Source: Minisyncoccia bacterium
Lineage (GTDB): Bacteria; Patescibacteriota; Minisyncoccia; Phycocordibacterales; UBA9973
Length of the DNA: 64,000 nt
Direction of reading: 5' to 3'
NCBI GenBank assembly: GCA_041737125.1
Contig: JBGSSJ010000014.1
Location: 68,375 to 132,374 of the forward strand
Shown here: positions 6,034 to 43,523 of the stretch, piece after piece
Layout: the number at the start of each line of letters is the position of its first letter
Position numbering within the stretch: the stretch's first letter is position 1
Position numbers and translations under genes: made by a program
Notes under the pieces: model-generated
What the model was told of the DNA's origin: nothing
What the model saw: only the letters and a program-made list of their open reading frames with translations
Databases searched by the model: none

Positions 6034-6304
6034 TTTTTCAGCCTCCTCTGGCTGTGTTTATTTGATTTTTAATGAACAAAAAAGAGCCCCACATTATGTA
6101 GAGCTCTTTTTTATAATTTAATCTTAGAAGGAGAATTACATTACAAAAAACAACCCTACATGTTTGTTCCATGGAGTACAGAAGGGAGTGTTATATTTTT
6201 GTATGTTTCTCGACATATTTTTAATGTATCATACACGTTTTCATATTGCAACAGTTGTGATAATCTATGTTTATCAGTTGGTAGACCTGCCCGCCATCGC
6301 CTAA

Positions 6305-6377
6305 GCCCATGTAGCTCAATTAGTAGAGCATCGGTATCGTAAACCGAAGGTTAGGAGTGCAATTCTCCTCGTGGGCT
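6305..6377 (+). tRNA. tRNA-Thr (anticodon CGT) embedded between GC-rich inverted-repeat arms
   Basis: Acceptor GCCCATG/CGTGGGC, D-arm GCTC-AATTAGTA-GAGC, anticodon loop ATCGTAA, T-arm AGGAG-TGCAATT-CTCCT (atypical T-loop). Confidence 0.65.
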
Positions 6378-6448
6378 CAGGCGTAGGCAGGCGGGGCGAC
6401 CCCTTCGTAAGGGGTAGGTCCGCAGTTCGATTCTGCGAGGTGGCTCCA
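6378..6448 (+). pseudogene. 5'-truncated tRNA-like element (anticodon arm with CGT, canonical T-arm TTCGATT, acceptor 3' strand plus encoded CCA) lacking a matching 5' acceptor strand or D-arm
   Basis: ACCCC-TTCGTAA-GGGGT anticodon arm, CGCAG-TTCGATT-CTGCG T-arm, AGGTGGC-T-CCA. No GCCACCT partner found upstream. Confidence 0.35.
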
Positions 6449-37618: not shown

Positions 37619-37977
37619 TAACTTTGGACGGTTTTTCTAATAATGAACTGGGCAGGTAGCAAAAAACTCCTAGCCAGATCCGACATACCCCGTGAGGTAT
37701 GCCCACATCAGTTTCCCGATGTGACCGTCCAAAGTAGACCCCTGACTAGGAGATCTTTGCTTTGGACGGATTTGCAACCATATCCTTTGGCGAACCAAAG
37801 GGGTTAGGTCGACTGATATTCAGTTGTAAATGAATAATAACATTTTCAGAGTTATTACTCTAGATTGATTGTATCGCTGATACGTGGTTTTGCTAAGGAT
37901 AGTATCGCGAGTATGCGACGTATTTCTTAGTCTGCATAGTCTTAGCAAAATAGATGATCTGCGTCATTAATTAATAT
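37619..37977. promoter_or_regulatory. palindrome-rich non-coding region upstream of the second serine recombinase (candidate attachment site and promoter)
   Basis: CTTTGGACGG at 37621 and 37758 with its inverse CCGTCCAAAG at 37725; CTCCTAG / CTAGGAG inverted pair; TTGCTAAG..CTTAGCAA inverted pair. Confidence 0.35.
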
Positions 37978-39300
37978 ATGGAAACGCAGTACATAAGTAA
38001 CCTTGGTGTTAAGACGGAGGTAATTCAAGCGAAAGTAAGATATGTCTTATACGCCAGAAAATCAACTGAATCTGATGAGAAGCAAGCCCTTTCGATTGAG
38101 TCTCAAGTAAAGGAGATGTTAACTATCGCAGATCGAGACGGTTTAACAGTCGTCGATATTAGGCGTGAATCTCATTCTGCAAAAGAGTCAGGGCAACGAC
38201 CAGTATTTAAAGAATTACTTGAGGATATTCGGCGAGGTAGATATACAGGAATTCTGACCTGGGCACCTGATCGTCTTTCTCGAAATGCCGGTGATCTTGG
38301 TTCAGTTGTTGACCTTATGGACGAAAACAAGCTTATAGAGATTAGGACATATGGACAACACTTTAAGAATTCACCAAACGAGAAGTTTCTTTTAATGATT
38401 TTATGCTCACAAGCAAAACTCGAGAACGATAATAAAAGTATCAATGTAAAACGAGGATTACGGACAAGATGTGAAATGGGGCTTCGCCCAGGTCCTGCAA
38501 TATTTGGATATTTAAACGAAAAGCATGTAGATAAAAAATGTGAAGTTATTATCGACACAGAGCGAGCACCTGTAGTTAAAAAGATATTTGAAAAAGTAGC
38601 ATATGAAAAATGGAGTGGGAGAAAAATATATCACTGGTTAAAGTTTGAGTTAAATCTAAAAACTCGTAACGGAAACAAAGGACTTACCCTCAGCAACATC
38701 TATATGATTTTAGAAAACCCCTTTTACTACGGGGTTTTTGAATATCCCAAGAAAAGTGGAAATTTTTATAAAGGTAGACACGAACCAATCATCACAAAAG
38801 AACTGTTTGATACTGTGCAAGAACAAGTTAAATCACAAACTCTTCGTACTCAAGAGCCAAAAGAATTCGCTTTTATTAAAATGATGAATTGTGGTCTTTG
38901 TGGATCAGGAATTACCGCAGAAGAAAAATTTAAGAAACTTAAAGACGGCAGCATAAACAGACATGTGTATTATGGCTGTGCCAAATCTAAGGATAGATTT
39001 TGTAAGTGTGGGTATATTAATGAGAATGATTTGATTCAACAATTTGAAAAACTAATTGATCAAATTGATATCAATGAAATTGGAATGAAAGAAAAAATTA
39101 AATACGAAGTTGAGCGAATTAAAAGATTTAACCATTCTGTATTAAATATAAAACAACAAATACAGATAAAAGATGTGGATGTAAGGGACTACGCCAAGTT
39201 TATTTTGAAAGATAGCTCGATTGAAGACAAGCGAGAATTACTCATGTGCTTTAAAAACAACATTTTGTTAGATAATAAAACTATTAGGTTGAGTTATTAA
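37978..39300 (+). CDS. large serine recombinase (paralog of 1948..3591)
   Basis: YVLYARKSTESDEKQALSIESQ...WAPDRLSRN catalytic domain and a Cys cluster CGLCGS...CAKSKDRFCKCG. Confidence 0.85.
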   Translation: METQYISNLGVKTEVIQAKVRYVLYARKSTESDEKQALSIESQVKEMLTIADRDGLTVVDIRRESHSAKESGQRPVFKELLEDIRRGRYTGILTWAPDRLSRNAGDLGSVVDLMDENKLIEIRTYGQHFKNSPNEKFLLMILCSQAKLENDNKSINVKRGLRTRCEMGLRPGPAIFGYLNEKHVDKKCEVIIDTERAPVVKKIFEKVAYEKWSGRKIYHWLKFELNLKTRNGNKGLTLSNIYMILENPFYYGVFEYPKKSGNFYKGRHEPIITKELFDTVQEQVKSQTLRTQEPKEFAFIKMMNCGLCGSGITAEEKFKKLKDGSINRHVYYGCAKSKDRFCKCGYINENDLIQQFEKLIDQIDINEIGMKEKIKYEVERIKRFNHSVLNIKQQIQIKDVDVRDYAKFILKDSSIEDKRELLMCFKNNILLDNKTIRLSY

Positions 39301-39379: not shown

Positions 39380-40957
39380 ATGACCACACTAACCAAAAAA
39401 CAAAAAGAAGTATTTGATTATATAAGCACATATATCGCTGAAAATGGTATTTCTCCAACCATTGATCAGATTCGTAAAAAATTAAAGCTGAAGGCAGTCT
39501 CTACTGTTCATGAACATATCGCTTCCCTAAGAGAAAAAGGATACCTTTCAAAGTCAGATAGTACAGATCGAGGGATGACACCAAAAAAAGAAATCAAATC
39601 GGTAATTGAGATTCCTATAGTTGGTAAAATTGCTGCTGGTCAACCAATTGAGGCATTAGAAGATCATCAGGCTACTATTTCAATAATAAATCCCTCTATT
39701 AAGAGTGCTAAGGATCATTATGCTTTACGAGTAGTTGGTGACAGTATGATCGATGAAGGTATTTTTAATGGAGATATTGTGGTTATTAAAAAACAATCCG
39801 TAGCAGAGAATGGACAAACTGTTGTCGCGATTATTGACGATAACCAAGCAACCCTCAAAAAATTATATAAGGAGGATAAAAAAATAAGGCTACAGCCTGG
39901 AAATCCTGACATGAAGCCTTTGTTTAGAGTAGATGTTGAGATCAGAGGTGTTGTTGTTCAAGTTATAAGAAATATCGATAATGAAGCAGAAGTGTTACCT
40001 ACAAAGAAACAGAAGCATGGTTTTAGAACAATAGACTTATTTGCTGGAGTAGGAGGCATCCGAAAAGGATTTGAAAATGCAGGTTTTAAAACAGTCTTTG
40101 CAAATGATTTTGATGCCCCTTGTAAGCAGACATATGATTTGAATTTTAAAGATTCTAAATTAATAATTGAAGACATTAGAAAAATTGGTATCAATGATTT
40201 ACCAGAGTTTGACTTTATACTCGGAGGTTTTCCTTGTCAGGCATTTTCTATAGCAGGCTATCGCAAAGGCTTTGATGATCCTAAAAATAGAGGTAACCTG
40301 TTTTTTGATATTGCGAAGATTATTGAAGCAAGAAAACCAGCAGGCTTCATGTTGGAAAATGTTAAAAATCTAAAAAGCCATGATGATGGAAATACTTTTA
40401 GAATTATCGAAGAGACCCTCAGAGATCTTGGTTACCATGTAAAATCCAAAGTACTAAACACTATGGAATATGGAAATGTTCCCCAAAATCGTGAGAGAAT
40501 TTATATTGTAGGATTTAGAAATAAAGATTACTTTGATAGGTTTAACTTTCCAGAACCAGTAAAACTCACAAAAAAAATAACAGATCTCTTAGAGAAAAAT
40601 GTTCCTGAAAAATACTATTACAATGGCAAACCTCTTTTTGATAAATTAAAGAAAGACGTAAAAGAAGAAGGTAAGGTATACCAATGGCGAAGGCAATATG
40701 TTCGCGAAAATAAAAGTGGGGTTTGCCCTACTCTCACAGCAAATATGGGAATGGGTGGACACAATGTACCAATTATCAAAGATAAGAAAGGTATCAGAAA
40801 ACTTACGCCATTAGAGTGCTTTAGAATACAAGGATTTCCTGCAACTTATATTTTACCCAAGATCGCAGACTCTTCTTTGTATAAACAAGCTGGCAATTCA
40901 GTTAGTGTCCCTGTTATTGAAGCCGTTGCTAAAAAAATGATGGAGGCAATGAAGTAG
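39380..40957 (+). CDS. fusion of a full-length LexA repressor (wHTH plus S24 autopeptidase) to a cytosine-5 DNA methyltransferase
   Basis: LexA part: LTKKQKEVFDYI, cleavage site KIAAGQP, VGDSM Ser, TLKKL Lys. MTase part: motif I DLFAGVGG, motif IV GFPCQAFS (PCQ), ENV, C-terminal QAGNSVSVPV. Confidence 0.85.
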   Translation: MTTLTKKQKEVFDYISTYIAENGISPTIDQIRKKLKLKAVSTVHEHIASLREKGYLSKSDSTDRGMTPKKEIKSVIEIPIVGKIAAGQPIEALEDHQATISIINPSIKSAKDHYALRVVGDSMIDEGIFNGDIVVIKKQSVAENGQTVVAIIDDNQATLKKLYKEDKKIRLQPGNPDMKPLFRVDVEIRGVVVQVIRNIDNEAEVLPTKKQKHGFRTIDLFAGVGGIRKGFENAGFKTVFANDFDAPCKQTYDLNFKDSKLIIEDIRKIGINDLPEFDFILGGFPCQAFSIAGYRKGFDDPKNRGNLFFDIAKIIEARKPAGFMLENVKNLKSHDDGNTFRIIEETLRDLGYHVKSKVLNTMEYGNVPQNRERIYIVGFRNKDYFDRFNFPEPVKLTKKITDLLEKNVPEKYYYNGKPLFDKLKKDVKEEGKVYQWRRQYVRENKSGVCPTLTANMGMGGHNVPIIKDKKGIRKLTPLECFRIQGFPATYILPKIADSSLYKQAGNSVSVPVIEAVAKKMMEAMK

Positions 40958-40959
40958 GG

Positions 40960-41523
40960 TTACCAAACCTTTACATCAGTCGCGATTGGCTTAAGGTCAT
41001 ATTTTGCAATCACATCTTTTTTGATACAAAATCTAGGTCGTCTCTTTTCTTCTTGTTGCTGTTTTAGCGTTTGAAGTTTATTGACCGGGTTATCATAGAT
41101 AAAATTATTAGGTATTTTATATACCTTAAAAGTTCCGTCGACTCTGCCGTCAGCATAAAAATCTAAAAAATATAAATCGTCCCACTTAGATTTTGGACCA
41201 AAAGAAGTAAGATCATTTTCTACACTACAAGCTTTGATTTGTTCTGCTCTCTTTGTTTTAGTATTAAACGTATCAAATGATGTATTAGAAAGTTTTTTAG
41301 CACTTATTAATCTTGTGGATCCAGACCATAAACAAAAAGCAACCTCAGATAATCCTTCAGGAAAATTTGGTTCACGCGATTTATAATCACGCATTCCCAT
41401 CTTTAATCCTTTCCATAGATCAAATAGTGTTTTCCATTTTTTTCCATCAGAAGAATCAAACTCCATTAGATCAACGGTGCAGTCTTCATCAAAAATAGTA
41501 GTGTTTACTTTAACTAAGTTCAT
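40960..41523 (-). CDS. putative type II restriction endonuclease partner of the C5-MTase (small, possibly Bsp6I-like)
   Basis: Convergent with only a 3-bp gap to the C5-MTase gene; 187 aa with acidic/Lys clusters compatible with a PD-(D/E)xK enzyme. The call rests on context only. Confidence 0.35.
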   Translation of the reverse strand: MNLVKVNTTIFDEDCTVDLMEFDSSDGKKWKTLFDLWKGLKMGMRDYKSREPNFPEGLSEVAFCLWSGSTRLISAKKLSNTSFDTFNTKTKRAEQIKACSVENDLTSFGPKSKWDDLYFLDFYADGRVDGTFKVYKIPNNFIYDNPVNKLQTLKQQQEEKRRPRFCIKKDVIAKYDLKPIATDVKVW

Positions 41524-41628
41524 GATGTATTTATACTATATTTTTATCAATTTCTCAAACAAAAACACCTTTTTAATTAAAGGTGTTTTTGTTTTAAAAC
41601 TAGCTATCTTTGAGCTAGCTCTTGTTTG

Positions 41629-41728
41629 CTGCCAGACCTGGACTCGAACCAAGGAAGTGTCCTACCCGCCCGCCATTGCAAGCATGAGCTTGCTCAGGCG
41701 TTGCGGGCGGGCCATTAGACGATCACTG
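41629..41728 (-). pseudogene. degenerate tRNA-Gln paralog: T-arm and acceptor 3' strand intact, anticodon arm deleted, 47-nt GC-rich palindrome inserted in the D-loop, 5' acceptor mutated
   Basis: Aligns base-for-base with tRNA-Gln at 41743..41813 except for the missing anticodon arm and the inserted CCCGCCCGCC...GCGGGCGGG hairpin (41665..41711). Confidence 0.45.
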
Positions 41729-41742
41729 ATTTCTGCACAAAG

Positions 41743-41813
41743 CTGCCAGACCTGGACTCGAACCAAGATAACCTCCTCCAGAGGGAGGTGTCCTACCATT
41801 AGACGATCTGGCA
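41743..41813 (-). tRNA. tRNA-Gln (anticodon CTG)
   Basis: Acceptor TGCCAGA/TCTGGCA, D-arm GTCT-AATGGTA-GGAC, anticodon arm CCTCC-CTCTGGA-GGAGG, T-arm CTTGG-TTCGAGT-CCAGG. Confidence 0.8.
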
Positions 41814-41828
41814 GCTTTGTGCATAAAT

Positions 41829-42065
41829 TTATATTCTCTCTTTTAAAAATCTTCTCCCAAAACCTGTTTTAAAATACTTTTCTCTTTTCAATGCTTTTTC
41901 TTTACTATTACAAGCTTCATAATATAAAATTTCTAAAGGTCTTCTATTCTCAGTAGCTGGTACTTTGCCTGCAGAATGAAGATTAAATCTATTCTTCAGG
42001 TCTTCGGTATAACCTACATATAAATCACCATCCTTTAAACTTTTTAATACATATGTGTAATACAT
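41829..42065 (-). CDS. GIY-YIG nuclease superfamily small protein (YhbQ/UPF0213-like)
   Basis: YTYVLKS...GDLYVGYTEDLKNRFNLHSAG GIY-YIG motif and C-terminal REKYFKTGFGRRFL. Confidence 0.75.
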   Translation of the reverse strand: MYYTYVLKSLKDGDLYVGYTEDLKNRFNLHSAGKVPATENRRPLEILYYEACNSKEKALKREKYFKTGFGRRFLKERI

Positions 42066-42073
42066 AAATTAAA

Positions 42074-42136
42074 GTCCTACCCGCCCGCCATCGCAAGTAT
42101 GAGCTTGCTCAGGCGTTGCGGGCGGGCTATTAGACG
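42074..42136. repeat. second copy of the GC-rich ~47-nt palindromic element with tRNA D-arm-like flanks (gtcctac...attagacga)
   Basis: 42079..42125 matches 41665..41711 with 3 substitutions; the flanks gtcctac and c(t/c)attagacga are conserved. Confidence 0.55.
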
Positions 42137-42162
42137 AGCCGGCAATGCGATCGGCAAATACT

Positions 42163-42213
42163 GCTCAATGTCGATATATTACCACAAAAAAGCTAAAAAA
42201 CAATTAAAAATAT
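42163..42213. repeat. ~50-bp direct repeat, copy 1 (CTCAATGTCGATATATTACCACAAAA...TAAAAAACAATTAAAAATA); copy 2 at 43586..43636
   Basis: Two near-identical copies bracket the 42264..43523 gene. Confidence 0.7.
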
Positions 42214-42263
42214 GCTCTTGAATCAATTCCTAGAATAACTATTCATACTAACTTACAGTTAGG

Positions 42264-43523
42264 TTATTCTTGTTTAGGTTCGTAAATTACAGTACCTTTT
42301 GCTATCTTATTATTTTTTTCATCTTCTTCATCTACGGTATTAAATAAAATGTTAAATTCTAAATTATCACCAGTAGAATTTTTTTGAATATCCACAGACT
42401 TTGGCTCTCCCTCTGTTGGCTTATCAGATGCAATCACTTTTACATTATAAACCTTGGACATTTCCTCTGCGAGTCCACCCTCAACACCTGTAAGACAACT
42501 CGATAATACTAGTTCCGCATTATTTTCAAATAATTCTTTGACTCTCTGTATACCTTTACCACTTAAATCTTTTTGCTGGAGCATGCGGTTATCACCCTCT
42601 CTATCGCCAAATCCTACAACATCTGTATTGCCATGAACATGCATATACATGAACTTTATTTTTTGATTATATTTATCTCGAAGATATAGTAGTCGTTTTG
42701 CTAAATCAATTTTTCCATTTGACTCAATAATTCTTATCATAAAGGAATTTTCTTCCACTTTCTCTCTGATACCTTCTGATTGATTCGATTGGGAGAAGGA
42801 ACCATTCCAATCCATAACTGCCTGAAAAAATAAACCATAAGGACCTTTCGCATCTCTCTCCTCATACTGTTTTTTAAGTTCATGTATTGTATATCTCCCA
42901 AAACCACGAATACCAAAATTATCAAATAAATACTTTACAGATCCTTTTTCAAAATTTTGAAGAAATCTTATTTTTCTAAATGTTTCATATATGTACCAGT
43001 CAGCTATTTCGTCATCCTTAACTGTAAGCCAGCTCTGAATAAGATCTTCTGCTTCGTGTTCAGAAAAACCAAACTGTTTTAATATGTAATCAGCCAAATA
43101 CTCTTTATACTCTAAATCTTTTTCTTTTGAAGTATATAATTCTCTCTTTCTTAAAATATCGCGAGCTAGTGTATGATCAATATCATTTGATATCATATAC
43201 AATCTTGCAGTTATTTCTTTATTTGAATCAGTAAGCAAATCAAGTTTATCAATAAGTTCAAAATAAAACTCGTATTCTCGGGATATACTAAAATGTAATT
43301 CTCCTGTTTCTTCTCTTTCTATATATTTTCGAATTTCACTTTCAACTACCGGTTGAATTTTTATAAAATTTTCTTTTATTTCATTAAACTTTCTGGTTCC
43401 AGGTGAAGATTTTAAAATATCTTTTGCTAATACCTCTAGTTTAGACTTTATATCTTCAGGAGTTTTCATCTCTTCAAGATCTATGCTTCCTGTTTTTATT
43501 ATATTAGGGTTAGGTTCTTTCAT
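42264..43523 (-). CDS. hypothetical 419-aa protein bracketed by 50-bp direct repeats; possible His/Cys-dyad hydrolase in its C-terminal half
   Basis: Long ORF; HVHGNTDVVGFGD and LVLSSCLTGVEGG segments about 45 residues apart (weak caspase-like His...Cys spacing); no firm motif. Confidence 0.45.
   Translation of the reverse strand: MKEPNPNIIKTGSIDLEEMKTPEDIKSKLEVLAKDILKSSPGTRKFNEIKENFIKIQPVVESEIRKYIEREETGELHFSISREYEFYFELIDKLDLLTDSNKEITARLYMISNDIDHTLARDILRKRELYTSKEKDLEYKEYLADYILKQFGFSEHEAEDLIQSWLTVKDDEIADWYIYETFRKIRFLQNFEKGSVKYLFDNFGIRGFGRYTIHELKKQYEERDAKGPYGLFFQAVMDWNGSFSQSNQSEGIREKVEENSFMIRIIESNGKIDLAKRLLYLRDKYNQKIKFMYMHVHGNTDVVGFGDREGDNRMLQQKDLSGKGIQRVKELFENNAELVLSSCLTGVEGGLAEEMSKVYNVKVIASDKPTEGEPKSVDIQKNSTGDNLEFNILFNTVDEEDEKNNKIAKGTVIYEPKQE

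Follow-up and report, generated by a model that had tools for sequence, protein, structure and literature searches.

The palindromes found at the tRNA-Gln locus of the analyzed DNA (a stretch of 64,000 nucleotides from a Minisyncoccia bacterium, hereafter the window) most likely belong to one copy of a selfish cassette that resides in the tRNA genes of Patescibacteria (CPR bacteria). In the interpretation that we consider the best supported, GC-rich palindromic hairpins (HPs), broken copies of tRNA-Gln and a gene encoding a small GIY-YIG protein together form a single selfish unit lodged between a tRNA gene and its promoter. This anatomy and its recurrence beside 18 tRNA species were directly observed.

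Organization of the Cassette at the tRNA-Gln Locus

Two 47-nt palindromes occur at this locus (41665-41711 and 42080-42126, + strand coordinates), none comparable being found in 100 shuffles (chance expectation, none). Both sit in the D-loop of tRNA-Gln fragments, with a 78-aa GIY-YIG gene and an intact tRNA-Gln between them, and the whole cassette reads on the minus strand. The 64-nt repeat made up of the palindrome and its flank is 95% identical between copies 1 and 2. The locus is found again, with both palindromes, in a separately named assembly contig (L001, Logan SRR28170474). Its features, in minus-strand order, are:

42168..42183, minus strand: promoter-like 16-mer GGTAATATATCGACAT, with an extended -10 (TGgTAATAT); the same 16-mer lies directly 5' of the cassette-free tRNA-Gln of the relative L213
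42148..42156, minus strand: first short tRNA-Gln 5' fragment TGCCGATCG, matching positions 1-7 of the L213 tRNA-Gln
42127..42144, minus strand: tRNA-Gln 5' fragment TGCCGGCTCGTCTAATAG, tRNA positions 1-19 (from repeat and excision alignments)
42080..42126, minus strand: palindrome copy 2 (HP2), between D-loop G19 and U20 of the tRNA-Gln fragment
42074..42079, minus strand: TAGGAC, the tRNA-Gln fragment resuming after HP2 (positions 20-25)
41829..42065, minus strand: gene of the 78-aa stand-alone GIY-YIG nuclease, UPF0213/YhbQ-like (from Pfam PF01541, PDB relatives and catalytic residues)
41743..41813, minus strand: intact tRNA-Gln(CTG), 58.3 bits, beginning 15 nt past the nuclease stop codon
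41712..41724, minus strand: short 5' D-arm fragment GATCGTCTAATGG, positions 6-19, ahead of palindrome copy 1
41665..41711, minus strand: palindrome copy 1 (HP1), at the same D-loop position as HP2
41628..41664, minus strand: tRNA-Gln 3' remnant, consisting of TAGGACAC, TTC replacing the anticodon arm, and the T-arm and acceptor strand
41545..41620, minus strand: two hairpins (inverted repeat), putative terminators of the cassette unit, a function that is inferred

Copy 1 thus reads GATCGTCTAATGG, palindrome, TAGGACAC, TTC and CTTGGTTCGAGTCCAGGTCTGGCAGC. Its 13 nt of 5' D-arm and the 8 nt past the insertion match tRNA-Gln, and its final 26 nt are identical to the T-arm and acceptor strand of the intact gene (26/26, 100% identity). 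The anticodon arm is absent, TTC standing in its place, and the 5' acceptor strand has not been kept, so that copy 1 cannot fold as a tRNA. Since this remnant is identical to the intact tRNA-Gln over 26/26 nt and both differ from the tRNA-Gln of L213, which of the two is the resident copy and which the cargo remains undecided. Copy 2 consists of TGCCGGCTCGTCTAATAG, palindrome and TAGGAC, without T-arm, and the GIY-YIG start codon lies 14 nt past the last base of its palindrome. The flanks of the intact tRNA-Gln (41729-41750 and 41807-41828) lengthen its acceptor stem to a 22-nt pairing that extends 15 nt past the stem.

The 16-mer GGTAATATATCGACAT was not called by a promoter consensus scan; that it acts as a promoter driving the cassette unit is inferred from the comparison with L213. 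The fragment TGCCGATCG is probably the vestige of an earlier round of insertion, which is also an inference.

A first-pass annotation of the window had described a palindrome inserted in a degenerate tRNA-Gln copy and repeated beside the GIY-YIG gene. The palindromes themselves, the deletion of the anticodon arm from copy 1, the position of copy 2 beyond the 78-aa gene, its lack of a T-arm and the presence at 6.3 kb of a palindrome with a tRNA inside it were all confirmed. Two details had to be corrected: copy 2 had been placed at 42079..42125, one base off, and only two of the three substitutions reported between the copies fall within the 47 nt, the third difference belonging to the flank. 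The description as a degenerate copy held only in part, copy 1 being a remnant, displaced or duplicated, of a kind found after the intact tRNA in five of 40 cassettes.

A Small Stand-Alone GIY-YIG Protein

The 78-aa protein belongs to the UPF0213/YhbQ-like stand-alone branch of the GIY-YIG superfamily and has a single domain, its nuclease activity being inferred from sequence. It matches Pfam PF01541 (GIY-YIG) with E=5.6e-16 and 59.1 bits (cutoff 22.6), residues 1-69 aligning with profile positions 1-72 of 78. Its closest PDB relatives are both UPF0213 proteins (1ZG2, BH0048, E=5.9e-7; 1YWL, EF2693, E=1.7e-4); no NCBIfam model matches it. The catalytic residues, which include the metal-binding Glu, are conserved: Y5, Y16, G18, R26, H30, E62 and K66 are each found in at least 98% of 120 unique nuclease homologs. 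As the catalytic-domain model spans the whole protein, a separate DNA-binding domain is absent, and the protein is therefore not a classical sequence-specific homing endonuclease.

A tRNA-Thr Gene Enclosed in a Palindrome

The window carries a second locus, at 6.3 kb, where a palindrome of the same family encloses a complete tRNA and interrupts another one:

6274..6285, plus strand: TCAGTTGGTAGA, the D-loop remainder on the 5' side of the resident tRNA-Thr(CGT), whose positions 1-11 are lost (intact orthologs are present in L205, L207 and L208)
6286..6395, plus strand: same-family palindrome in the opposite orientation, with a complete, different tRNA-Thr(CGT) (6305-6378) in its loop
6396..6448, plus strand: 3' part of the resident tRNA-Thr(CGT), positions 22-76, intact-looking and orthologous to the uninterrupted gene of relatives

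The palindrome arms (6286-6304 and 6378-6395) surround the inner tRNA-Thr(CGT), which ARAGORN places at 6305-6378 and whose last base is put at 6377 by Rfam. Palindrome and inner tRNA together sit in the D-arm of the second tRNA-Thr(CGT), the 3' part of which is intact. The inner tRNA has clearly diverged from those of L205, L207 and L208 (about 60% identity, judged by eye on the alignment). The same arrangement, a tRNA inside an HP inside the same tRNA, was found for tRNA-Gly at another locus (L043).

Insertion Mode and Empty Sites

Insertion of HPs is clean, free of duplication and possible in either orientation. In silico removal of the HP rejoins a contiguous tRNA sequence without any duplicated base for 66 of 132 copies, indicating that no target duplication was generated. 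The insertion points in tRNAs cluster at positions 17-23, others being found at 6-13, 35, 57 and 72. Of the HPs compared with their tRNA and gene, 13 share the strand and 19 are on the opposite one. The picture is mixed outside tRNAs, a few non-tRNA copies (L046, L123) being flanked by direct repeats of 7 nt.

HPs can also be nested in other HPs, arranged in tandem arrays or present as solo copies. Four lie inside long reading frames that read through. Solo HPs insert 16 aa in frame in ValRS and in a FAD protein, and another solo HP is located in the open frame of a glycosyltransferase. Others occur in unrelated intergenic DNA, some solo copies being followed by T-runs or lying between genes.

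Orthologous sites devoid of any insertion were found for both loci of the window. In L213, a relative whose ABC-F protein is 91% identical, the same 16-mer is followed by an intact tRNA-Gln with neither HP nor nuclease gene, which reveals a presence/absence polymorphism at a conserved site in a close relative. Synteny upstream of ABC-F is poor and L212, L214 and L215 were uninformative, the empty tRNA-Gln site being documented from L213 only. At the Thr locus, L205, L207 and L208 (RF2 80-81% identical) carry an uninterrupted tRNA-Thr(CGT) in a syntenic position before prfB.

Overall, these elements likely constitute a mobile palindrome family coupled to an UPF0213-type mini-nuclease, mobility being inferred from comparisons, with no transfer seen.

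Prevalence and Diversity of the HP Family

HPs form a family of GC-rich palindromic mini-elements with a core of about 47 nt, CCCGCCCGCAACGCCTGAGCAAGCTCATGCTTGCGATGGCGGGCGGG, and a size ranging from 30 to 113 nt. Their 9-nt arms (CCCGCCYGC/GCRGGCGGG) are conserved, the inner hairpin being variable yet still paired. A pattern scan of metagenomes yielded at least 120 loci. About 15 of the matches were due to chance in GC-rich coding DNA (e.g., L012, L015, L020, L028 and L033); the later counts, which required a flanking arm sequence missing from these matches, do not include them.

A GIY-YIG gene starts 9-29 nt from the palindrome for 32 of 96 HPs, and on all contigs that are long enough this gene is followed by a tRNA located 250-285 nt from the HP. 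Among the 59 HPs with at least 450 nt of flank on each side, 22 have a GIY-YIG gene within 400 nt and 25 have neither a nuclease gene nor a tRNA within this distance. The converse, protein-first search retrieved 80 unique homologs (at least 55% identity), of which 52 are followed by a tRNA within 130 nt and 44 are preceded by a strict-arm HP within 140 nt.

The common layout, repeated around CPR nuclease homologs with at least 56% identity, consists of a tRNA 5' fragment split by the palindrome, followed by the nuclease gene and then by a complete tRNA. The HP lies 9-30 nt from the nuclease ATG, and the median distance from the nuclease stop codon to the tRNA 5' end is 4 nt among CPR homologs. 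According to ungapped alignments made after palindrome removal, the duplicated tRNA fragment starts at tRNA position +1 (range -9 to +2) and ends at position 14-41. In five of 40 units, the GIY-YIG gene and the tRNA are located between two HPs in direct orientation, and no classical transposase was seen. In one case (L180), two different palindromes occupy a single 39-nt remnant.

The association between GIY-YIG gene and palindrome spans many CPR phyla and extends to a Flavobacterium with a different palindrome. At least one Flavobacteriaceae genome harbors the cassette, and Marixanthotalea marina XHP0103 shows the same architecture (L180). Nuclease similarity tracks tRNA identity only weakly (0.652 versus 0.626). 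The HP arm type co-varies with the nuclease clade (permutation p=0.0002), a relationship in which host phylogeny is a confounding factor. Nothing points to a phage vector: the pattern scan of the viral IMG/VR collection returned a single chance match in GC-rich coding DNA (L004), and in the INPHARED phage collection no DNA matched and the GIY-YIG protein matches were all distant (at most 44% identity).

These results bear on the proposal of the first-pass annotation, which had left the choice between a mobile or homing-associated element with tRNA affinity and a tRNA-derived family of structured RNAs. The former is supported by clean insertion, coupling to GIY-YIG genes and empty sites; the latter is not supported by orientation, folding, arm conservation, in-frame copies or Rfam. 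The proposal would have been refuted if only the copies of the window existed or if GIY-YIG homologs of related genomes were never adjacent to such palindromes; many further copies exist, and adjacency is routine.

Proposed Mode of Spread

In the scenario that we favor, the nuclease gene is placed between the promoter of a tRNA gene and the mature 5' end of this tRNA, with a copy of the first 14-41 nt of the tRNA, split by an HP, upstream of it and, in some loci, a second HP and the 3' remainder of the tRNA downstream. In this view, the host survives through retention or import of a complete tRNA, and at 6.3 kb the replacement tRNA is carried by the HP itself. The cassette is predicted to be transcribed from the tRNA promoter, RNase P freeing the tRNA from the nuclease mRNA. 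A break made by the nuclease may then start recombinational copying, either in a homing-like way or by integration of an excised circle; this is an inference, and neither activity nor cleavage site was observed. The tRNA sequence would serve as portable homology, provided by the 5' fragment at one end and by the full tRNA at the other, and the HP, by splitting the leftover target, may both block re-cutting and disrupt a direct repeat prone to cassette deletion. The same activity could spread HPs in trans to further sites. A counterpoint is that, if the D-arm is the target, the intact tRNA of the cassette itself ought to remain cleavable.

A bolder reading, which is merely possible, is that the 78-aa UPF0213-type GIY-YIG protein is the dedicated mobilizing enzyme of the palindromes: a minimal nuclease, specific for structure or arms, would cut and paste or copy the 47-nt hairpins, together with any tRNA cargo in the loop, without target duplication.

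Alternative Explanations

One explanation that we regard as unlikely is that HPs are non-autonomous elements moved by an unrelated enzyme of the Y1/HUH type (REP/RAYT or IS200/IS605), the GIY-YIG cassette being a favored landing site owing to the neutrality of its tRNA remnant. HPs do resemble elements based on single-strand DNA hairpins in their clean insertion without target duplication, their hairpin structure and their freedom of orientation, and the two palindromes of the L180 remnant point in the same direction. Furthermore, roughly half of the HPs lie at a distance from both nuclease genes and tRNAs (25 of the 59 with adequate flanks) and may therefore be moved by something else. However, no Y1/HUH transposase was seen next to HPs at the inspected loci (this was not a systematic search), the association with GIY-YIG genes holds across many CPR phyla and in the Flavobacterium with a different palindrome, and the arm type follows the nuclease clade.

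Host-domesticated processing, terminator or insulator repeats of tRNA genes, with only a secondary link to the GIY-YIG gene, are similarly improbable. In favor of this idea, some solo copies precede T-runs or are intergenic, the intact tRNA-Gln and the nested tRNAs lie inside long leader/trailer stems that look like processing stems, and GC-rich palindromes flanking tRNAs are already known from AT-rich genomes (Yin et al. 1981, cited in PMC4478555). However, orthologous tRNAs of relatives lack palindromes, HPs interrupt the tRNA sequence instead of flanking it, the coupling to one nuclease family is seen from both search directions, and nested copies, tandem arrays and insertions within the frame of proteins are typical signs of selfish spread.

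It is very unlikely that the palindrome and its tRNA-like flanks are a functional structured RNA, either a tRNA-derived non-coding RNA or a regulatory or stabilizing 5' leader of the nuclease mRNA. Some observations do favor this hypothesis: the palindrome folds far better than shuffled sequences (z = -3.5 to -4.7), in local folding the D-stem encloses it, the pairing of the inner helix is kept by compensatory changes in four of six pairs (on a hand-specified structure), and the HP is without exception part of the 5' untranslated region, 9-30 nt ahead of the ATG. However, orientation relative to gene and tRNA is mixed (13 versus 19), so that the conserved asymmetric loop is present as its complement in about half of the mRNAs, and folding energy shows no preference between sense and antisense strands across 72 unique palindromes (p=0.81). 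The outer arms are invariant or vary in a non-compensatory manner (a recurrent non-compensatory variant in 43 copies versus no compensatory one); being conserved as sequence and not by compensatory pairing, they indicate a DNA-level element. RNAalifold, run on 46 palindromes, returned a covariation term of about 0; indels put the inner part out of alignment and the search pattern biases the set, which accounts for this value. Moreover, the acceptor stem of the pseudo-tRNA is broken, copies occur in frame within proteins and in unrelated intergenic DNA, and Rfam gave no match on the palindromes, either over the whole window at the gathering threshold or over 41400-42400 at E up to 10.

A tRNA intron (group I or archaeal bulge-helix-bulge) was also considered and rejected: the HP-bearing copies are without the rest of the tRNA, lacking the 5' acceptor strand or the anticodon arm or being followed by the nuclease gene, and Rfam gave no match to an intron family.

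Finally, islands often integrate at tRNA genes and duplicate tRNA 3' ends, and an island (37.9-41.5 kb) encoding a large serine recombinase, LexA-Dcm and a Bsp6I-like endonuclease lies directly downstream of copy 1, but the idea that the partial tRNA-Gln copies are att-site duplications made by this island, with the palindrome as part of att, is all but excluded by the absence of a third copy of the tRNA-Gln 3' end where it was searched at the far side of the island, by the distance between the two tRNA-Gln copies (114 nt, not an island length), by the same architecture in L002 and at dozens of loci without a recombinase beside the unit (inspected loci, with no systematic screen of neighbors) and by the lack of any island at the 6.3-kb locus.

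Comparison with Known Systems

Several known systems resemble the selfish cassette that we propose. The GIY-YIG homing endonuclease SegB is encoded by a free-standing phage gene in the tRNA gene cluster of T4, recognizes a 27-bp site that includes a conserved tRNA motif, leaves 2-nt 3' overhangs and, by homing, brings neighboring tRNA genes into genomes that lack it (PMC2330249). The window cassette likewise sits at tRNA genes, is found again at many tRNA species and travels with a working tRNA. However, SegB is reported to be a multi-domain protein with a DNA-binding part, whereas the window protein is a bare 78-aa catalytic domain (UPF0213) found in cellular CPR genomes; the motif of the cassette is mostly the D-loop and not the T-loop, and neither a palindrome nor a duplicated and interrupted tRNA fragment accompanies SegB.

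In mitochondria, comparable elements include the GC clusters of yeast (GC42, PMC4478555), the GC-rich palindromes flanking tRNAs in Neurospora (Yin et al. 1981, cited in PMC4478555), the repetitive hairpin elements of sponges (PMC2800124) and, reportedly, the double-hairpin elements of Allomyces (Paquin et al. 2000, listed among palindromic GC clusters in PMC4478555). Similarly to HPs, mitochondrial GC clusters are GC-rich palindromes of about 40 nt that occur in compact AT-rich genomes, have a constrained hairpin and undergo merging and nesting, and endonucleases of the same genome are suspected of being the mobilizing activity. Nevertheless, they are organellar, yeast clusters show a putative AG target duplication whereas HPs show none, and the relevant passages of those papers mention neither tight one-to-one physical coupling to a particular nuclease gene nor interruption or carriage of tRNAs. 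Allomyces also provides a parallel for gene replacement: a mobile GIY-YIG element of atp6 is reported to supply a replacement gene end that displaces the resident one (Paquin et al. 1994). In both cases an essential gene is invaded, a substitute is supplied and the displaced resident piece is left as a remnant. The target in Allomyces is a mitochondrial protein-coding gene and the nuclease is larger.

Among bacterial repeats, Rickettsia palindromic elements (RPEs) share one point with the HPs found inside ValRS and the FAD protein. RPEs measure 100-150 nt, are restricted to Rickettsia and are not known to be linked to a nuclease gene or to replace tRNAs. REP/BIME sequences and the ends of IS200/IS605 elements are imperfect palindromes of about 35 nt, dispersed and often in tandem or inverted, that generate no target duplication; they combine a sequence-specific arm with a structural hairpin, carry a conserved GTAG and are mobilized by Y1/HUH enzymes. 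In contrast, the HP consensus has no visible GTAG and the linked gene encodes a GIY-YIG nuclease (RAYT genes were not screened in the genomes). HPs also share with MITEs terminal inverted repeats, a small size and the absence of coding capacity, but differ from them by the lack of target-site duplication in 66 of 132 copies.

Implications

No description of this cassette was found in the literature that we searched; subscription journals were largely outside this search, and a prior description is thus not excluded. The papers on mobile DNA in CPR that could be reached concern insertions in rRNA genes and not in tRNA genes, and the one on CPR rRNA insertions mentions GIY-YIG proteins only in these insertions. 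What appears new is a palindromic repeat distributed across many phyla of CPR, whose genomes are tiny; the invasion of tRNA genes with provision of a replacement tRNA, a route for horizontal tRNA replacement and for "addictive" retention; in-frame insertions of 16 aa in essential proteins such as ValRS; and a bacterial equivalent of mitochondrial mobile GC clusters, which have long lacked an explanation.

Mini GIY-YIG proteins of the UPF0213/YhbQ type are common and two were solved by structural genomics, with no agreed function. A consistent palindromic partner and an address at the 5' leader of tRNAs provide a testable hypothesis on the function of UPF0213. If the bolder reading were true, HP and GIY-YIG gene would represent a new class of autonomous bacterial mobile elements, this widespread orphan family would be assigned a function and exchange of tRNA genes between CPR lineages would be explained. 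At a practical level, fragments of tRNA pseudogenes and 47-nt GC spikes may confuse tRNA annotation and MAG assembly.

Organization of the Gln and Thr loci

Our analysis indicates that the Gln locus carries what is likely a selfish cassette, composed of a mobile palindrome and a nuclease. All the features of this locus lie on the minus strand and include two copies, HP1 and HP2, of a GC-rich palindrome of ~47 nt.

Features of the Gln locus, from 5′ to 3′
42183-42168, minus: promoter-like 16-mer GGTAATATATCGACAT, 5′-most part of the unit
42156-42148, minus: 9-nt piece of the 5′ end of tRNA-Gln
42144-42127, minus: 18-nt 5′ fragment of tRNA-Gln, TGCCGGCTCGTCTAATAG
42126-42080, minus: palindrome HP2
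42079-42074, minus: TAGGAC, directly after HP2
42065-41829, minus: 78-aa GIY-YIG ORF, whose ATG lies 8 nt past TAGGAC
41813-41743, minus: intact tRNA-Gln(CTG), 15 nt past the GIY-YIG ORF
41724-41712, minus: GATCGTCTAATGG, 18 nt past the intact tRNA-Gln
41711-41665, minus: palindrome HP1
41664-41628, minus: tRNA-Gln remnant after HP1, TAGGACAC-TTC-CTTGGTTCGAGTCCAGGTCTGGCAGC
3′ of the remnant, minus: two terminator-like hairpins

The first-pass annotation had described palindromes inserted in a tRNA-Gln D-loop and bracketing a GIY-YIG mini-ORF; this description is correct except for an offset of one base and the choice of strand. The palindrome pattern never arose by chance (0 in 100 shuffles). 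Over its final 26 nt, the remnant shows no difference from the 3′ end of the intact tRNA-Gln, and the window has no third copy of this end. The flanks of the intact tRNA-Gln (41729-41750 and 41807-41828) prolong its acceptor stem into a 22-nt pairing (95% complementary) that reaches 15 nt past the stem; it resembles a processing stem and parallels the palindrome arms around the tRNA cargo of the 6.3-kb element and of L043, a comparison locus.

At 6.3 kb, the order is TCAGTTGGTAGA, CCTGCCCGCCATCGCCTAA, tRNA-Thr(CGT) (6305-6378, plus strand), CAGGCGTAGGCAGGCGGG and GCGACCCC…GGTGGCTCCA. This palindrome belongs to the same family as HP1 and HP2 (with GCCCGCCATYGC and GCTCAGGCGT in common), in opposite orientation, and its inner hairpin is replaced by a whole tRNA-Thr(CGT); the element is inserted past position 21-23 of a second tRNA-Thr(CGT). 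The same nesting of a tRNA inside a palindrome inside the same tRNA was found in L043 for tRNA-Gly(CCC). The cargo tRNA-Thr has a non-canonical T-loop (TGCAATT versus TTCGAAT-like) and still scores 63.9 bits; the T-loop of the disrupted resident copy is canonical.

Empty sites in related genomes

For the Thr locus, relatives encode RF2 proteins that are 80-81% identical and keep the downstream synteny prfB-ftsE-ftsX-pyrG; one of them (L207) also has the ProC-like gene upstream. All carry, ~22 nt before prfB, an uninterrupted tRNA-Thr(CGT), GCCACCTTAGCTCAGTTGGTAGAGCAC…GGTGGCTCA. Since this gene aligns with the outer 3′ part of the window's element, the inner tRNA-Thr is clearly diverged from it (~60% identity, estimated by eye) and homology of the intergenic DNA on the upstream side extends to a deletion that removed resident positions 1-11, the resident tRNA-Thr gene was interrupted. 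From this comparison, we infer that a foreign tRNA-Thr now serves in its place.

At the Gln site of L213, whose ABC-F is 91% identical, the identical 16-mer is directly followed by an intact tRNA-Gln(CTG), and both the nuclease gene and the palindrome are absent. Relative to that of L213, the window's intact tRNA-Gln carries several paired changes in its acceptor stem and T stem; these suggest a replacement of the tRNA-Gln but do not prove it.

Prevalence and diversity of the cassette

In another MAG (L002, GCA_964639185.1), a nuclease 74% identical to the window's lies between TTGGGAGATCGTCTAATGG-palindrome-TAGGACAAC and a tRNA-Gln. The interrupted fragment corresponds to the first 27 nt of this tRNA-Gln plus 4 nt of leader; since it matches its own tRNA-Gln, the fragment varies together with the resident tRNA.

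Searching metagenome contigs for the pattern ACGCCTGAGC-N8-38-GCRATGGCGGGC retrieved at least 120 loci, ~100 matches being true palindromes and the remainder chance matches in GC-rich coding DNA. A GIY-YIG gene starts 9-29 nt from the palindrome in 32 of 96 cases (same strand in 13, opposite strand in 19), and a tRNA lies downstream of the gene, 250-285 nt from the palindrome, wherever the contig is long enough. A protein-first search (80 loci in GTDB species genomes) revealed the same layout. Homologs with ≥56% identity have a CCCGCCYGC…GCRGGCGGG palindrome within a 5′ fragment of the tRNA downstream of the gene; their hosts are Patescibacteria: Magasanik-, Kerfeld-, Komeili-, Zambryski-, Buchanan-, Berkel-, Gottesman-, Falkow-, Woese- and Roizmanbacteria, Saccharibacteria and others.

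Among 120 unique proteins, the palindrome lies 9-30 nt from the ATG, the stop codon a median of 4 nt from the tRNA 5′ end, and the cassette adjoins 18 tRNA species. Nucleases next to the same tRNA are only slightly more similar to each other than other pairs (0.652 versus 0.626), and in 10 of 53 cases (4.5 expected) a nuclease shares its tRNA species with its nearest neighbour. Nuclease and tRNA identity being weakly linked, the cassette therefore switches tRNA species often.

The same architecture occurs outside the CPR, in the cultured Flavobacteriaceae Marixanthotalea marina XHP0103 (L180, 1420-1811), a possible experimental system. Two different GC-rich palindromes lie in its tRNA-Arg 5′ fragment, one at positions 9/10 and the other at 21/22. 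The duplicated stretch extends from -5 to +34, and the GIY-YIG ORF, lacking its own stop, runs into the tRNA-Arg and ends at a TAG within it.

Some loci (L037 9683-9828, L065, L094 5435-6277 and L125/L061) contain tandem units of a tRNA 5′ fragment and a palindrome, with or without a nuclease gene or stump, upstream of one intact tRNA, suggesting repeated invasion or unequal recombination. In L037, the nuclease gene has apparently shrunk to a mini-ORF, its start fused to its end.

More remote GIY-YIG homologs (sharing <60% identity with the window nuclease; L151, L154, L158, L160, L163, L165, L169, L177, L181 and L189) lack the palindrome and have another conserved motif upstream of their start (…CACCCTGTTAAAT… / …GCCCTGTGAAATAG…). 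Their MAGs are labelled Cloacimonadota, Bdellovibrionales, Melioribacter, Thermodesulfobacteriota, Pirellulales, Bathyarchaeota, Saccharibacteria and others. At some loci, this motif is preceded by a gene fragment, tentatively of a 23S-rRNA-intervening-sequence-type four-helix-bundle gene.

The nuclease and the palindrome

The window nuclease matches the Pfam GIY-YIG domain over its full length and, without a DNA-binding domain, does not qualify as a classical homing endonuclease. Among proteins of solved structure, it is closest to the UPF0213 proteins 1ZG2 and 1YWL, and conservation of the catalytic residues extends across 120 homologs. The arm type of the palindrome and the clade of the nuclease co-vary (p=0.0002), a result confounded by host phylogeny.

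In 66 of 132 copies, in silico removal of the palindrome restored a contiguous tRNA sequence at the junction, mostly with 100% identity, and no target duplication or deletion was found at these 66 junctions. Insertion points cluster in the D-loop (positions 17-23) and also occur at positions 6-13, 35 (anticodon loop), 57 and 72, in both orientations. On the palindrome's own strand, the base step past the GGGCGGG end is TA in 29 of 58 tRNA cases, and D-loop insertions read GG^TA or GGTA^G, depending on orientation. This pattern would be compatible with a 2-nt staggered break around TA; the link to the GIY-YIG enzyme SegB, whose reported break has a 2-nt stagger, is inferred.

Palindromes are nested in each other's loops (L035, L066, L115, L144 and L166) or form tandem arrays (L011, L031, L074 and L106). 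Four of the 25 solo copies, with neither tRNA nor nuclease gene nearby, lie in long read-through ORFs, a pattern that resembles Rickettsia palindromic elements.

Solo in-frame palindromes in long ORFs
L009, 3754-3800: valyl-tRNA synthetase
L088, 837-884: FAD-dependent protein
L119, 4874-4921: GT4 glycosyltransferase
L075, 1824-1871: long ORF

Relative to its profile, the insertion-bearing Pfam domain is longer by 14 residues in the synthetase and by 16 in the FAD protein. In 46 diverse copies, the inner helix shows compensatory changes in four of six pairs (covariation score above all 500 shuffles); covariation was never seen in the outer arms. A frequent arm variant, CCCGCCTGC/GCGGGCAGG (43 copies), is non-compensatory, and compensatory arm combinations are absent. 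The two strands show no difference in folding energy (p=0.81). Taken together, clean insertion in both orientations, nesting, solo in-frame copies, the arm and inner-helix pattern and the lack of strand bias point to a DNA-level element, likely combining sequence-specific arms with a structural hairpin. The alternative, a palindrome acting as a one-strand RNA, is disfavoured by the insertion, orientation, nesting, in-frame, arm-conservation and strand-energy evidence.

Proposed mechanism and comparison with known systems

The upstream fragment starts at tRNA +1 (range -9 to +2), adjoins the native promoter and ends at position 14-41. The nuclease gene lies within the tRNA leader, without space for a separate promoter before the tRNA. 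By inference, nuclease and tRNA would be co-transcribed, RNase P freeing the tRNA. Five of 40 units continue past the tRNA with a second palindrome and a 3′ remnant. This composite form, found in the window, would be the expected product of a break-induced crossover of a tRNA gene with a donor, circular or linear, of the type [tRNA fragment-palindrome-fragment]-gene-(tRNA); the common simple form would arise from it by deletion between the duplicated 3′ parts. The tRNA sequence itself would supply portable homology on both sides, and the palindrome would break up the leftover target and direct repeat. We lean slightly against rather than for this specific route of crossover followed by deletion.

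The nearest precedents are T4 SegB for the logic of the cassette, and mitochondrial GC clusters, Rickettsia palindromic elements and REP elements for the palindrome. None of these brings together a conserved palindrome, interrupted tRNA duplicates, a tRNA cargo and a nuclease consisting of the bare catalytic domain. No prior description of the cassette was found in the literature searched, and a study of rRNA insertions in CPR mentions GIY-YIG proteins in these insertions only.

Apparent neighbouring island

At the edge of an apparent integrated restriction-modification island, a full-length LOOT RNA (37682-37810, minus strand; Rfam RF03000, 79 bits versus a gathering score of 46.4) adjoins a large serine recombinase gene (37978-39300). 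The region 39380-41523 encodes an unusual 525-aa fusion of a LexA DNA-binding domain, an S24 peptidase and a C-5 cytosine methyltransferase, adjoined by a Bsp6I-like restriction endonuclease. Judging from its sequence, this fusion resembles an SOS-style self-cleaving regulator joined to a restriction-modification methylase.
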